Shown piece by piece: positions 5,087 to 32,767 of a DNA stretch of 32,767 bases. The notes below the pieces were generated by a model that was not told the origin of the DNA, ran no database searches, and worked only from the letters and a program-made list of their open reading frames with translations. Both the position numbers and the translations under genes were made by a program. The first letter of the stretch is position 1. Each line of letters starts with the position of its first letter. The DNA lies in IMG/VR virus record IMGVR_UViG_3300029999_000001, positions 67,557 to 100,323 of that record; one strand, 5' to 3'. This DNA comes from a virus.

Positions 5087-5496
5087 GCCGCCTCCCTTGC
5101 GGTCGCGCGGATGCGGGTCGGCTCGCCTTCGCCGCCGAGCTCACGGAGCAGGTTGTCCCAGTCCGACAGCGGGAACCAGTTCTTCTCCATCAGGTGCGCC
5201 GTCCAGCGGCACAGGGCCGGCCACGTGGCGATCCGGGGGCCGTCGATCTCGTAGCAGCTCTCGTCGTGGTCGGTGCGGCACTTGTCGTGCGCGGTCCGCC
5301 AGTGGACGTCGCGCGGTGCGGTCAGGAACTCCACGATGTCAACCCCCGCGTTGTGGAGACTTTCGCCGTGACGTTCCTGCCAAGCCCGGTCCGCGGCCTG
5401 CACGTCGTTGATGTCGCCGATGCGGACGTAGATGCTGCCGGTGTCACCCGTGATCGGGAACGTGCACGTCTCGCAGATCAGGGTCAGGTCACTCAT
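5083..5496 (-). CDS. hypothetical phage protein (CETC...H..C...HLMEKNW)
   Basis: Coupled ORF, high GC3. Confidence 0.7.
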   Translation of the reverse strand: MSDLTLICETCTFPITGDTGSIYVRIGDINDVQAADRAWQERHGESLHNAGVDIVEFLTAPRDVHWRTAHDKCRTDHDESCYEIDGPRIATWPALCRWTAHLMEKNWFPLSDWDNLLRELGGEGEPTRIRATAREAA

Positions 5497-6866
5497 GCCG
5501 TACCGCCAACCACCGTTGAGGGCGTCCAGCCCTGACCGGTCTCATAGTTCTCGCGTGCCTGGGAGACGATGCGCCCGTAGTGGCCCTGGAACTGCAAGGT
5601 CACGGTCGTCAGCGGGCCCTGCCGGTTCTTCGCGACGATCACGTCCAGTTCGCCGGCCCGCGCGGATTCCCGCTCGTAGTAGTCCTCGCGGTGCAGCAGC
5701 AGCACCACGTCAGCGGCCTGCTCGATCTCGCCGCTCTCCCGCAGATCGGACAGGCCCGGGATCTTGTCAGTCCGGTGCTCGGATGCTCGTTTCAGCTGGG
5801 CGAGCAGCACCACCGGGATGCCGAACTCGCGGGCCAGATGCTTGCAGCCCCGGGCCAGTTCCGCGACGGCATTCTGCCGGTTCTCGGCTTTCGGTTCCTT
5901 GAACAAGCCGAGGTAGTCGGCGATGTACATCCGGGCCGGGTTGCCGCTGCGCTCCATACCGCGAAGCCGGGCCCGGGCGTGAGGGAGTGACACATGGTCC
6001 TGGTCGTCAACGATCAGCGCGGACCCGGTGAGGTGGTCGTGGGCGCGGTTGATGCGGTCCCATTCCCCGTCGCTGAGGTTGTGCCGTACGAGGGAGTCCA
6101 GTTGCACGGTCGCGGTGGCGGCCATGCGGCGGAGCATCAGTTCCCCGGCGGTCATCTCCATGCTGGAGAACAGCACCGGCAGGCCCAGCCGGGTCGACAT
6201 GTGCTCAGCGATGCCCCCGGCGATCAGGGTTTTCCCCATCCCGGGCCGGGCTCCGATCACCGTGAGCGTGCCGGGCCGCAGCCCGCCGAGCACGTCGTCC
6301 AGGTCCGAGTAGCCCGTGCGCAGGCCCGGCTCGATGCCGCGCTCAAGCTGGTCGATGACGTCAGTGAGGACCTCAGCCTGCGTGCGGAGTTCCGCCTTGG
6401 CGGGCCCGGCGGTGGCGTCCCCGATCAGCTTGAGGATCACGTCGCCGCCGTCGTCCGTGTCGAACTCCGGGCTAGATGCGATCTGCAGGGCGCTGGTGAG
6501 CGCGGCAAGGGTGCGGCGCTGCCGGGCGGCCCGCAACACAGTCTGAGCGTGCGCGGCGTACGAGGGAGTCGCGCATTCCATCAGGCCGGCGAGGATCACC
6601 CCGGCCTGCCCGCTGCGCCACACGCCCTGCTCGGCGGCGACGAGGTGCCGCAGCACCGATGGGACATCACACGGCTCGCCGGTCTCGGTGAGGTACCGGA
6701 CGGCGGCGTACACGGCCTGGTGGATAGCGCTGGCGAAGCAGTCGTCCCGGTCAAGGATCGCGGCGACGGCTTCAGCGGCGGTCCGGGACGTGATGATGGT
6801 TCCGAGCACGCCCCGCTCGGCGGCCTCGACGTCCGGGGTGCGGCCTGGGCCTGGTGTCTCGCTCAT
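5493..6866 (-). CDS. dnaB: replicative DNA helicase, DnaB family
   Basis: N-terminal AERGVLG...HQAVY, Walker A GARPGMGKT, SMEM, DYL, LAQL, DLRESGEIEQAAD, KNRQGP. Confidence 0.95.
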   Translation of the reverse strand: MSETPGPGRTPDVEAAERGVLGTIITSRTAAEAVAAILDRDDCFASAIHQAVYAAVRYLTETGEPCDVPSVLRHLVAAEQGVWRSGQAGVILAGLMECATPSYAAHAQTVLRAARQRRTLAALTSALQIASSPEFDTDDGGDVILKLIGDATAGPAKAELRTQAEVLTDVIDQLERGIEPGLRTGYSDLDDVLGGLRPGTLTVIGARPGMGKTLIAGGIAEHMSTRLGLPVLFSSMEMTAGELMLRRMAATATVQLDSLVRHNLSDGEWDRINRAHDHLTGSALIVDDQDHVSLPHARARLRGMERSGNPARMYIADYLGLFKEPKAENRQNAVAELARGCKHLAREFGIPVVLLAQLKRASEHRTDKIPGLSDLRESGEIEQAADVVLLLHREDYYERESARAGELDVIVAKNRQGPLTTVTLQFQGHYGRIVSQARENYETGQGWTPSTVVGGTA

Positions 6867-7249
6867 GATCCCTCGATCTCAAGTCGCGGCGTGCCGGTGA
6901 CCGCACGCATCGCCGCTTCAGGGTCGCGCCCGTCGGCGACGGCGACCGTCGCGGCGTGCAGGGCTGCGCGATAGGTGTCGCGGTCGCCGTTGGCTATCTC
7001 GGGCGGCGGCGCGGGGATCTCGGCGCGGGCGATGCGCTCGTCGCGGATCTTCCGGACACACTGACGGACATGGGCCGGCATGATCCACTCGGTGCTGTCG
7101 GTGTAGTGGCTGATCACAGCCGTCTCACAGTCGTGGTAAGGCAAGTCGCCGAGGGCCTGAAGCCAGGCGATCACATCGGCCTCGCCAATCTTGCGGCGGT
7201 CGTAGCTGGCGCACTTGGCCAGCAGGCGCCCGGTCTCTTCGGCGTTCAC
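6863..7249 (-). CDS. putative helicase loader/inhibitor (G39P-like)
   Basis: LA..A.YD.R...W...L.DL.Y.D...AV..HY...IMPAHV pattern; located between initiator and DnaB. Confidence 0.65.
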   Translation of the reverse strand: MNAEETGRLLAKCASYDRRKIGEADVIAWLQALGDLPYHDCETAVISHYTDSTEWIMPAHVRQCVRKIRDERIARAEIPAPPPEIANGDRDTYRAALHAATVAVADGRDPEAAMRAVTGTPRLEIEGS

Positions 7250-30668: not shown

Positions 30669-31049
30669 ATGTCAACCGACATGCTGGTGATCGTCTGCGA
30701 TCCGGTAAACCCTCACGACCTGTTCGCTGCGGCGGCAAAGGCCCTGGGTGACCCGCGCTGGCACGAGCTGAACTTCGGCGGCGGCCGGATGATCCAGGCC
30801 CTCGAACAGCCGAAATCGGTGCGGGTGACGGTTCACTGCCCGTCCAACGGCGGCCCATGGCATGGCTGCAAGGGGGAGAGCGACCCCGATGGCTACGCCA
30901 CGGTCTCGTTCAGCACCGCGGCGGATGGTGACCGCATTGCACTTCTTGATTTTGCCGCCGCCGCGTTGGGCATCTGGCTCCGCCAGCGGCACGTTGGCTG
31001 GCTGTGGATGAGCCCGCAAGATTCCGGCTCGTGGGAGACGGGAGCCTGA
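30669..31049 (+). CDS. hypothetical protein
   Basis: Closely spaced ORF in the operon. Confidence 0.6.
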   Translation: MSTDMLVIVCDPVNPHDLFAAAAKALGDPRWHELNFGGGRMIQALEQPKSVRVTVHCPSNGGPWHGCKGESDPDGYATVSFSTAADGDRIALLDFAAAALGIWLRQRHVGWLWMSPQDSGSWETGA

Positions 31050-31052
31050 TCC

Positions 31053-32767
31053 ATGAGCCGCGTCGAGCGCAGCTGGAGCGGGGACGGTTTCGTGCAGGGC
31101 ACGGTCGTCTCCGACTCTGGCGTGCCCGCTGAGCCGCCGCGGCCCGAACCCCAGCCCCGTGAGCCGGGCGCGCTGCGGCTGATGTGGCGTCATCATGGCC
31201 CGTTCATCAAGCCGTTCTTGTGGATCATCGCCTTGTGGGCGGCCGGCGGTCTCGCGCACCGCGCGCATGGCCTTGAGGTCCGCGCGCTGCTGACGGTGCT
31301 GCCCGTGGCCGTCCCCGGCTGGCGCGTGTTTCGCCGCACCCGCAAGGGCACCCCGGAGCGGCTGCATGCGGTGGCGCCGTGGGCGGCTGGTTCACTGTGG
31401 CTGCTGGCCGCGGGCATCGTCACGGGGCCTGCCGGGTGGATGGTCGCGATCCTTGTGATCGGCGGCGCGTTTCTGGCCGGTACGCGTGCCCATGAGGTGG
31501 CCGGGAAGCGCCGGACCACCGTCCCGCCCGCCACCGAACCGGAACCCGCAGCCCCGCCCGCGGCGCAAGACTGCGACGAGGACCACGGCCCCACCCGTCA
31601 GCCGGCCCTGGATGAGGACGATTACATCCCGCCCGGCCTCGCCGACCTCAAGCCTGCTAATCAGCCTGACCCGGGGAAGCTCATCAACGCGAGCAAGATC
31701 ATGGTCGCGGCTCTTACTGAGGTGCTGGAGCAGTTCAAGGTAGACGCGCAGGTCACCGGGTTCACGCGCGGCCCGCAGGTCACCCGGTATGAGGTTGAGG
31801 TCGGCCCGGCCGTGAAGGTGGAGAAGGTCACCGGCCTGCAGAAGAACATCGCCTACGCGGTGAAGTCCGATGCGGTGCGGATCATCTCCCCGATCCCCGG
31901 TAAGTCCGCGATCGGCGTGGAGATCCCCAACGTGGACCGGGAGATCGTTGCCCTCGCCGATGTGCTGAAGTCCCCGGCCGCGGTCGCTGATCATGATCCG
32001 ATGCTGGCCGGGCTCGGTAAGGACGTTGAGGGTGTCGCGGTGCTGGCGAGCCTGCGGAAGATGCCGCACATGCTCGCGGCCGGAAGCACTGGCAGTGGCA
32101 AGAGCGTCTGCATAAACACCCTGATCACCTCAGTGCTGACCCGCGCCACCCCCGATCAGGTCCGCATGATCCTCATCGACCCGAAGCGGGTTGAGCTGTC
32201 GATCTACGAGGGCATCCCGCATCTGATAACCCCCATCATCACCAGCCCCAAGAAGGCGGCCGAGGCGCTGGAATGGGTCGTGGGGGAGATGGAACGCCGC
32301 TACGACACGCTGGCCGCATACGGGTTCCGGCACGTGGACGACTTCAACAGAGCCGTTCGCAACGGCATCCTCTTGCCACCCGACCCGATCCACCAGGGGC
32401 CGGTCCAGCCCTACCCCTACCTGCTGGTGATCGTGGATGAACTCGCCGACCTGATGATGGTCGCCCCCCGCGACGTCGAAGACTCGGTGGTCCGCATCAC
32501 CCAGCTTGCCCGCGCCGCCGGCATTCACCTGGTTCTGGCGACGCAGCGGCCGAGCGTGGATGTGGTGACCGGGCTGATCAAGGCCAATGTCCCGTCCCGG
32601 CTCGCGTTCGCCACCTCCAGCCTCACCGACAGCCGCGTGATCCTGGACCAGCCCGGCGCGGAAAAGCTGGTCGGGCAGGGGGACGCGCTGTTCCTGCCCA
32701 TGGGGGCCAGCAAGCCGATGCGGCTGCAGAACGCGTTCGTCTCGGAGAAGGAAATCCGGGCCATCGT
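31053..32767 (+). CDS. FtsK/SpoIIIE DNA translocase (TraB-like role), truncated by window end
   Basis: Manually translated (absent from ORF track): N-terminal TMs, [23 protein letters not shown], Walker [53 protein letters not shown]. Confidence 0.95.

Follow-up and report, generated by a model that had tools for sequence, protein, structure and literature searches.

An FtsK module with small membrane proteins and DNA motif arrays in a temperate actinophage genome: a possible DNA-translocation apparatus

The window analysed here is a stretch of 32,767 nucleotides, bases 67557-100323 of a 100,323-bp viral contig and thus its last third (IMG/VR virus record IMGVR_UViG_3300029999_000001, 100.3 kb, CheckV completeness 100%). 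It holds two groups of genes: arm 1, a leftward early operon with replication and recombination genes, and arm 2, a rightward operon that starts behind an XRE-type regulator and ends in a gene for the DNA translocase FtsK. Arm 2, the FtsK module, is our main subject. An earlier, sequence-only reading had taken positions 5493-32767 for a hybrid, in which a lambdoid-type replication and recombination arm is joined to an FtsK/Spd conjugation arm. It had considered a large conjugative element, a phage-plasmid with theta replication, and a prophage adjacent to or nested with an actinomycete integrative and conjugative element (AICE). Genes were called by GC content at third codon positions (GC3), since six-frame lists of open reading frames (ORFs) were judged useless at ~67% GC. 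The features of arm 2 and of the segment before it are the following, in window positions; relatives are cited by working labels.

21654-22481, minus strand: metallophosphoesterase of the inter-arm segment (Pfam Metallophos E=1.8e-8; 84% identical in G007)
23264-23473, minus strand: DUF397-like 69-aa gene (motif read in the translation)
23470-24066, minus strand: DUF6879 gene (Pfam E=4e-48)
24077-24091, plus strand: operator-like palindrome 1, CTTAAGCTGACTTAA, in the divergent spacer between the DUF6879 and XRE genes
24117-24953, plus strand: XRE-DUF5753 regulator (DUF5753 E=2e-41, HTH_31 E=2e-14)
24971-24985, plus strand: operator-like palindrome 2, CTTAAGTTGACTTAA, before the HTH_17/FtsK operon
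24987-25334, plus strand: HTH_17 protein of MerR/excisionase type, first gene of the rightward operon (Pfam HTH_17 E=6e-7; likely start ATG at 25035)
26441-27999, plus strand: series of small genes, most of which encode membrane proteins (83, 63, 70, 74 and 95 aa; hydropathy scan)
28064-28879, plus strand: DUF2637-like protein (Pfam DUF2637 E=6e-4, a weak match)
28495-28629, no strand: motif array A, in the DNA coding for the linker of the DUF2637-like protein (five direct CGGTAACA and one inverted)
29098-29439, plus strand: 113-aa module protein (67% identical in L050, 47% in L052, present in G007)
29452-30027, plus strand: 191-aa protein with a low-complexity N-terminus and C-terminal transmembrane (TM) helices (conserved in relatives G007, L050 and L052)
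29508-29647, no strand: motif array B, in the 5' part of the 191-aa gene (eight CCGTAAC(A/G) cores, both orientations)
30081-30665, plus strand: 194-aa polytopic membrane protein with 4-5 TM segments (55-79% identical in L025, G007 and L050)
30669-31049, plus strand: 126-aa protein directly before ftsK (ORF with GC3 0.80; no family match)
31053-32767, plus strand: FtsK with a hydrophobic N-terminal anchor, alpha domain and motor (FtsK_alpha, PF17854, E=3e-25; FtsK_SpoIIIE, PF01580, E=3.5e-64)

The separate XRE switch that had been proposed for this arm is present as a trio of XRE-DUF5753, DUF6879 and DUF397-like genes with two palindromes, and the XRE-DUF5753/DUF6879 pair is kept in G001, G008, G009 and a shorter contig, P0050. 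The palindrome CTTAAGYTGACTTAA occurs in two identical copies in the window, against 0 expected by chance, and the second copy overlaps a TTGACT promoter-like site ahead of the HTH_17 gene; a promoter and terminator consensus scan of 18.8-25.5 kb gave nothing above shuffles. The XRE-DUF5753 protein probably binds at both palindromes, and would thereby regulate its own gene and shut off the promoter of the HTH_17/FtsK operon. The first gene of that operon had been called xis-like, and its product does match the PHROG 'excisionase and transcriptional regulator' (E=8e-6) in addition to HTH_17; a gene of this type lies at the same position in six other lineages (L050-L055).

FtsK, also named from the sequence alone, was matched in both its alpha and motor domains. 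The protein has ~3-4 hydrophobic segments in residues 50-150 and a short linker, an N-terminus that only the closer phage relatives share. Over its three domains (alpha, beta and gamma) the phage FtsK is 62-80% identical to actinomycete FtsK, and the motor shares 70-80% of its residues with FtsKs of chromosomes and plasmids, reaching 80% with a Nonomuraea chromosomal copy; by these identities the pump is a cellular-type FtsK, not TraB. In the FtsK tree 10 of the 16 inner branches were unresolved, and single and repeated capture were not separable. Upstream of ftsK, the small genes at 27190, 27478 and 27712 are kept in L052 and L025. A 302-aa ORF on the minus strand at 29.0-30.0 kb was rejected as spurious, the plus-strand genes at 29098-29439 and 29452-30027 being conserved instead.

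The ftsK gene runs off the end of the contig. The last contig ORF (window 31053-32767) covers the FtsK alpha domain and motor, while the first (contig 3-311) is an FtsK gamma domain (FtsK_gamma, PF09397, E=1e-24). Against full-length Streptomyces FtsK, the contig tail corresponds to residues 285-716 and the contig head to residues 732-821, and the gap at the junction is ~15 codons (~41 nt), consistent with the reading frames. In L025, L026, L050 and L052, alpha/beta and then gamma are contiguous and are followed by homologues of the contig genes at 0.7-4.6 kb. As judged from these alignments, the contig thus closes on itself into a circle inside ftsK, with the ~41-nt gap left at the junction; closure would also be expected from permuted or terminally redundant virion DNA. 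The FtsK arm passes the window edge and continues, without a break, through ~6 kb of small genes to the terminase, and the rest of the contig carries these features:

contig 6792-8324, plus strand: large terminase (TerL)
contig 8337-10259, plus strand: portal
contig 21610-23079, plus strand: major capsid protein, SU10-type
contig 28627-31383, plus strand: tail tube protein and tape measure protein
contig, outside the window, plus strand: lectin and beta-helix tail proteins (tail spikes)
contig, outside the window, plus strand: GH25 lysin
contig, after the lysin and before the integrase: GT2/GH16 pair
contig 57159-58547: tyrosine integrase with arm-binding domain

A siphovirus-type virion set (terminase, portal, major capsid, tail tube, tape measure, lysin) is therefore all on one replicon with the FtsK module. 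Temperate actinophages classically have a structural left arm, an integrase in the centre and a leftward early right arm, and the contig gene map matches this layout: its genes from ~59 kb onwards run leftward, and the window starts inside that leftward set. The sole PF00589 match on the contig lies at 57.9-58.5 kb, ~9 kb before the window and 33 kb from the FtsK module. The GC content is ~67% throughout, with no compositional break separating the two arms. An integrase or att boundary between the arms was looked for and not found; the inter-arm segment consists of the metallophosphoesterase and small genes, with no integrase, and the repeats in it are at chance level, the longest word in common with the region downstream of the module being 15 bp. 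No att-like direct repeats flank the FtsK arm beyond chance. RepSA and prim-pol (PF20199, PF09250) had no match on the contig, although the control, an AICE at locus L049, gave RepSA at E=1e-166, and ParA/ParB (PF02195, PF13614) had no match on the whole contig.

The single integrase, the missing RepSA, prim-pol and flanking repeats, the virion module and the closure of the contig all argue for one element and not two. We consider it likely that the window and the rest of the contig are one ~100-kb temperate siphovirus of a high-GC, probably mycelial actinomycete, with both arms as its operons. What had been read as a hybrid of two joined elements would then be a single phage genome; the complete virion module speaks against a large conjugative element, and a prophage beside or around an AICE is at odds with the same integrase, replication-gene and repeat results and with the two-arm order, which is kept in G007. 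The phage or phage-plasmid with theta replication and its own DnaB came closest, except that no partition genes were found.

Two repeats on the contig deserve mention. Shortly after the integrase gene come two copies of GCGGACTCCAAATGGACTCC within 260 bp (contig 58772 and 59033), a pair that is a candidate for the arm-type integrase sites of the phage attachment site, attP. In addition, each of the three small genes that follow ftsK ends in a copy of the last ~25-60 bp of ftsK ('...LRAASNPEEK*'), as if cassettes had been inserted one by one at a single recombination hot spot:

contig 619-679, 1235-1262 and 1668-1695: repeats of the ftsK 3' end

The module recurs in at least 8 phage lineages. 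Its order was judged in the six further lineages (L050-L055) whose flank spans the regulator to ftsK; for L050-L052, phage nature was read from 21-kb loci only. In 6/6 the order is repressor, HTH_17/MerR, small genes, DUF2637-like protein, a gene of ~105 aa, one of ~175-190 aa with C-terminal TM helices, polytopic membrane protein and FtsK alpha/beta/gamma, and the small genes of relatives often include WhiB. The repressor facing the operon in L050-L055 is GntR/UTRA, and the XRE-DUF5753 and DUF6879 form is found here and on the P0050 contig. The module core is also present in G007 and G006; the provirus G009 was left out as an example because its FtsK lies at the record edge and may be the host's own gene. 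The P0050 contig (JGI 3300047160, 31.3 kb) stops short of the expected place of ftsK. On it, ParA and ParB adjoin the DUF5753/DUF6879/HTH_17/WhiB/DUF2637 module, and some members of the module family may be true phage-plasmids.

The independent occurrence of the arms elsewhere would have suited a two-element origin, and in part it was observed. G001 (71.7 kb, complete with terminal repeats) has the initiator, its partner, the switch pair of arm 1, the XRE/DUF6879 pair and an integrase, without FtsK, and G008 (99.9 kb) has the virion module, switch pair, XRE pair and FtsK in common with our contig, without initiator or DnaB. The arms are, however, always in phage genomes and bring no integration genes of their own, and G007 (103.6 kb, complete with direct terminal repeats) has both arms in the same order and orientation beside a different virion module. 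On this comparison of gene content the arms reassort only inside phage genomes, which is ordinary phage mosaicism, and arm 2 is an accessory module conserved within a mosaic family of actinophages with genomes of 70-105 kb. The accessory module proteins (DUF2637-like and membrane proteins) had no PHROG match, which indicates that cultured phages lack this set. Scans of viral contigs with the DUF2637-like and 194-aa proteins returned no relative, tblastn with the former found no phage record and only one 'plasmid' record, in fact a Nonomuraea chromosome, and megablast of the arms gave nothing in phage records and only short DnaB stretches in plasmids. One candidate relative, NZ_CP107822.1, was rejected as an unrelated conjugative plasmid whose 34%-identical DnaB is the sole common gene.

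Within the module, the DUF2637-like protein and the two motif arrays are the parts that bear most directly on function. The AlphaFold2 model of the DUF2637-like protein has four long helices (a membrane domain), a disordered linker and a three-helix C-terminal domain (predicted local distance difference test, pLDDT, 90-96). A protein database search gave a family of ~57 members, all uncharacterised metagenomic proteins, and the C-terminal sequence is helix-turn-helix (HTH)-like in all of them, so that this domain may bind DNA. Foldseek with the whole model, and not with the C-terminal domain alone, gave no usable match.

The motif GTAAC/GTTAC occurs 55 times in the 100 kb, and 14 of these copies fall in two short stretches, arrays A and B. 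Array A accounts for 6 matches in the window against 0.24 expected, and the array B cores stand in two codon contexts, V-T and G-N. In G007 the same two arrays have the same 5+1 layout yet encode different low-complexity peptides. The motif is spelled here with the rare GTA valine codon, and this, together with the two codon contexts, points to selection acting on the array DNA rather than on the peptide. Across 8 lineages the most enriched hexamer sits at the same place but differs in sequence: it is GGTACC in L052, L054, L053 and G006, GTAAC in L055 and GTGGCC in L051. In G008 a CGGGTAC motif stands just before ftsK. Protein-DNA recognition arrays such as clt/TraB, parS/ParB and iterons/Rep are likewise conserved in place and lineage-specific in sequence, and by this analogy the arrays look like recognition arrays. 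The C-terminal types of the DUF2637-like protein loosely track the motif, with G000, G007 and L050 sharing one type and L052 and L051 having another each.

A first comparison is with the AICEs. The only database match of the DUF2637-like protein outside metagenomes is on the Nonomuraea gerenzanensis chromosome, within L049 (NZ_LT559118.1, 11.50-11.52 Mb), a seemingly complete AICE of pSAM2 type that carries no annotation; PLSDB lists the record as a 'plasmid', although it is an 11.85-Mb chromosome. The gene order of L049 is NUDIX, XRE, GntR, Tra (456 aa, FtsK_SpoIIIE only), DUF2637, RepSA (E=1e-166) and integrase. The DUF2637 membrane domain is 49% identical to the AICE protein over 121 aa, in an alignment that spans the whole domain, and this homology, with the position of the gene, makes 'Spd-like' a fair label. 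AICEs of the pSAM2 or pMEA type nevertheless have their own integrase and att bounds and replicate by RepSA, RepAM or prim-pol, and the module has neither; the AICE Tra is 26% identical to the phage pump, which is a cellular-type FtsK.

Likeness extends to the double-stranded DNA (dsDNA) conjugation and spreading system of Streptomyces, TraB-clt-Spd, known from pSVH1, pIJ101, pJV1 and the pSAM2-type AICEs (PMC4447253). The Tra-clt-Spd logic is published (PMC4447253, PMC3583192), and a GntR repressor layout is typical of the Streptomyces kil-kor transfer operons (PMC4447253). Common to both are a membrane-bound hexameric pump of the FtsK family, 3-7 small membrane proteins in the operon, a facing repressor and cis clusters of short repeats. 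In contrast, the 8-bp clt repeats are read by a C-terminal winged HTH domain of TraB, whereas the gamma domain here is of the invariant cellular type; our arrays lie ~1-2.5 kb upstream of ftsK, inside two membrane-protein genes and in part with mixed orientations; RepSA and Pif are absent here, and the genome encodes a virion.

A phage with a Streptomyces-type transfer locus has been described before, namely the plasmid-phage pZL12/phiZL12 (PMC3583192, PMC4487206), and its record (GQ919031.1; original publication Zhong et al. 2010, J Bacteriol 192:3747) was compared directly. Its host is a mycelial actinomycete, and its genome, that of a tailed phage, is circular and ~90 kb in size. As here, the operon of the FtsK-family pump lies directly upstream of the packaging and virion genes; GntR/UTRA faces NUDIX, a membrane protein, a 766-aa protein and an FtsK-like Tra, after which the packaging and virion genes follow. 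Its Tra, however, is of TraB type and has diverged far, with 22% identity to the phage motor over 102 aa and no Pfam FtsK match, and pZL12 has ParA/ParB, GntR and NUDIX where our contig has XRE-DUF5753, a tyrosine integrase, DUF2637, a cellular-type FtsK and no partition genes. The plasmid pAmyja1 of Amycolatopsis japonica (NZ_CP008954.1, 92.5 kb, circular, with phage genes) is related through its virion module, which is syntenic from TerL to tail and 40-59% identical; it has neither the early arm nor the FtsK arm in common, and has ParB-type genes.

Among cultured actinophages, FtsK-like genes are found in Cluster J mycobacteriophages (LittleE gp198) and in Streptomyces phages Mandalore, Naboo and Jaresh, near the immunity and integration region as here. 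The Cluster J proteins are shorter, share only ~50% identity and align only from ~residue 200 of the phage FtsK onwards. In Mycobacterium phage LittleE, gp198 (at 97.1-98.6 kb) is followed immediately by an annotated recombination directionality factor, with a transcriptional repressor two genes later. What is specific to our contig is the cellular-type FtsK pump, the XRE-DUF5753/DUF6879/DUF397 switch, the integrating backbone without ParAB and the arrays upstream of the pump.

Taking into consideration the membrane anchor of FtsK, the co-conserved membrane proteins, the AICE-homologous DUF2637 domain, the cis arrays and the GntR layout in relatives, we favour a Tra/Spd-like role for the module. 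By analogy with the plasmid systems, we give a probability of roughly 35-40% to the reading that the FtsK arm makes a Tra/Spd-like membrane DNA-translocation complex. Arm 2 would be a repressed operon, in which the XRE-DUF5753 control acts on the HTH_17 gene, about eight small membrane proteins, the DUF2637-HTH protein and the membrane-anchored FtsK; the operon continues from there into the terminase, portal and virion genes. The module would form the membrane complex, an adaptor, probably the DUF2637-HTH protein, would hold on to the phage DNA by its GTAAC arrays, and a hexamer of FtsK would pump double-stranded phage DNA across septa or hyphal walls. Directly observed are the gene content, the closure of the contig, the synteny and the arrays with their conservation; DNA binding by the DUF2637 protein, the pumping of phage DNA and any virion-free spread are inferred. 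The more general proposal, that integrating actinophages rebuilt a conjugation and spreading apparatus from a captured FtsK, an AICE-type DUF2637 protein with a DNA-binding tail and GGTA(A/C)C arrays, in which the adaptor picks the DNA and naked dsDNA moves without virions under its own XRE or GntR switch, is in our view rather doubtful. The conjugation arm of the sequence-only reading stands to the extent that DUF2637 is common to an AICE transfer region and that the organisation is tra-spd-clt-like; the motor, being that of a cellular FtsK and not TraB, does not fit it.

Several observations weigh against a transfer role. The motor is as close as 70-80% to chromosomal FtsK, and the FtsK tree places it in an unresolved cluster with cellular FtsKs, with the AICE Tra on an extremely long branch. 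The lineages differ in their arrays but share one invariant FtsK gamma core, identical to that of a cellular-type FtsK, so that FtsK itself is unlikely to read the arrays. DNA binding by the C-terminal domain of the DUF2637 protein, a candidate reader, is a prediction, the fold search with the whole model having been uninformative, and the co-variation of HTH type and motif rests on ~3 types and is a lead only. No contig protein matches pZL12 at E<=1e-4, and FtsK-like genes are common in actinophages, for which no transfer phenotype is known (PMC13587820; bioRxiv 10.1101/2024.02.16.580700). A strictly integrating lifestyle is likewise called into question by the virion relative pAmyja1, which is a plasmid, and by the one module relative with ParA/ParB alongside.

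The strongest competitor, which we still regard as unlikely, is that the FtsK module segregates the phage genome, or the chromosome with the prophage, at closing or sporulation septa, where it would clear or partition replicating or episomal phage DNA, and may activate Xer-type dimer resolution by way of its conserved gamma domain, with the arrays serving as a membrane-tethered centromere that is read by the DUF2637-HTH protein and replaces ParABS. It would account for a cellular-type FtsK whose invariant gamma domain is identical to that of host or plasmid FtsK, and for the lack of ParA/ParB on a contig whose iteron-based origin could support episomal replication; the relatives include the plasmid pAmyja1 and a contig with ParA/ParB beside the module, and FtsK/SpoIIIE has been discussed as a segregation function in Bacillus phage-plasmids (PMC11526630). 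However, the arm-type tyrosine integrase and the putative arm sites suggest chromosomal integration, in which private segregation is unneeded, the co-conserved small membrane proteins and the DUF2637-AICE homology are left unexplained, and the module lies in a repressed operon that reads into late genes, which is not a position expressed in lysogeny.

A manipulation of the host during infection, in which a phage FtsK with a foreign membrane anchor and the small membrane proteins would interfere with septation, sporulation or the cell wall, or the exclusion of superinfecting phage or plasmid DNA, is improbable. FtsK-, WhiB- and Lsr2-like developmental genes are frequent in actinophages, and WhiB genes lie inside the module in relatives, yet the conserved cis arrays of lineage-specific sequence and the retained DNA-binding gamma domain would go unexplained. 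For exclusion, PADLOC gave generic FtsK-domain matches to the defence proteins SspH and mad8, but these are domain-level only (FtsK, HTH) and no defence partners are present. Two elements, that is, a prophage with an AICE or conjugative plasmid inserted or adjoining and with separate replication and integration, would fit the DUF2637 homology to an AICE protein and the xis-like HTH_17 gene with its separate repressor, but are very improbable given a single integrase 33 kb from the module, no RepSA, prim-pol, NUDIX or GntR found in the window, no flanking repeats, a module that reads across the contig junction into the terminase genes and the same layout in several complete phage genomes.

Cross-walls divide filamentous actinomycetes, whose plasmids use a unique dsDNA pump to spread. 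If the Tra/Spd-like reading is true, phage and conjugative transfer would not be separate routes in these antibiotic-producing bacteria, and lysogeny could spread through a colony without lysis, which would give the phage genome a second transmission route. The module is well defined, with a repressor and two operators, a DUF2637-HTH protein, two arrays and a cellular-type FtsK, and it differs in every protein from pZL12, the one experimentally studied precedent, which would mean either convergent assembly or another use of FtsK by phages. For annotation, FtsK with DUF2637 and a xis-like gene in a high-GC contig does not alone mark an AICE.

The leftward arm 1 and its switch consist of the following features:

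320-1642, minus strand: P-loop protein of the DUF3987 family (helicase/primase-associated), last in the leftward early operon (Pfam DUF3987 E=2.7e-15)
2549-3910, minus strand: DUF6745 gene
3907-4686, minus strand: N6/N4 DNA methyltransferase (Pfam N6_N4_Mtase E=3e-29)
5493-6866, minus strand: DnaB-type replicative helicase (DnaB_C E=4.5e-76; DnaB N-domain E=2e-10)
6863-7249, minus strand: 128-aa protein between initiator and DnaB (PHROGs of unknown function only)
7246-8649, minus strand: 467-aa lambda O-like replication initiator (PHROG 'replication initiation O-like' E=2e-7)
7690-7891, no strand: array of iterons (origin) within the initiator gene (core CCGCACCCT / AGGGTGCG, repeat search)
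9522-10892, minus strand: C5 cytosine DNA methyltransferase (Pfam DNA_methylase E=1.4e-51)
14004-15648, minus strand: two exonuclease genes of DEDD/RNase T type, flanking a small gene (Pfam RNase_T, E=3e-15 for one and 1.6e-4 for the other)
15881-16798, minus strand: ERF single-strand annealing recombinase (Pfam ERF E=1.8e-19)
19033-19323, minus strand: 96-aa Cro-like, HTH-like gene that heads the early operon (translation read directly)
19498-20124, plus strand: 208-aa CI-like, HTH-like gene, divergent from the Cro-like gene (translation read directly)

The DnaB, the initiator with its iterons and the ERF recombinase had all been recognised from the sequence alone, and the family matches bear them out. 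The initiator matches five O-like replication initiation PHROGs, with modest similarity (E=2e-7 at best), and its relatives lie on 8 viral contigs, mostly with DnaB next after it. Within its gene the direct iteron copies have a 21-bp period and the palindromic pairs a 36-bp period, and the G001 initiator gene (63% identical) holds the same iteron core 8 times, clustered. For the proposed loader, the position fits, as the 128-aa protein adjoins the initiator in G001 and L011 as well, but no family supports it; the protein has no PDB sequence match and no detectable likeness to lambda P, and its naming as a loader is purely positional. The likeness to the lambda O/P module lies in origin iterons within the initiator gene, a small partner gene next to it and the O-like PHROG matches, whereas lambda recruits the host DnaB and here DnaB is phage-encoded. 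Going by family assignments and layout, the O-like initiator would bind the iterons in its own gene and, with the 128-aa partner, load the phage's own DnaB for theta replication, and the ERF protein and exonucleases would supply recombination.

Other predictions for this arm fared unevenly. A VRR-NUC nuclease was not recovered (PF08774 without a match on the whole contig at E<=0.01), and of the methyltransferases placed in 5493-32767 the C5 methylase is inside, while the second, N6/N4, enzyme lies before 5493. The CI/Cro-like switch was found in the translations as a divergent, paralogous pair of HTH-like genes, separated by a 174-bp AT-richer spacer, and homologues of both are present in G001, G008 and L025. 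The pair had no Pfam, PHROG or PDB match, no S24 domain was found in the CI-like protein, and PDB sequence searches with the CI-like protein, the 128-aa protein and a 123-aa protein gave nothing usable. From its arrangement the pair appears to be an immunity-type switch, in which the short Cro-like paralogue would head the leftward transcript and the long CI-like one would be transcribed away from it.

A few further observations were made in arm 1. The DUF6745 gene contains a dense tandem repeat (window 3250-3624) with a CAGCCTC-containing unit, the 7-mer occurring in 21 copies within 240 bp. Between an 89-aa gene and the C5 methylase (window 8885-9532) there is no confident coding, only a 215-aa minus-strand ORF with poor GC3. 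An 87-aa protein (window 11359-11622, minus strand) resembles the RNA polymerase alpha C-terminal domain, but below the Pfam threshold (E=5e-4; 20.2 bits where 23.8 are required). Finally, the initiator (67% identical), the partner protein and the 123-aa gene of the window (74% identical) all have counterparts on L011 (CAVUNQ010000020.1), a 76-kb contig binned as a Planctomycetota metagenome-assembled genome; L011 is probably a mis-binned actinophage contig.

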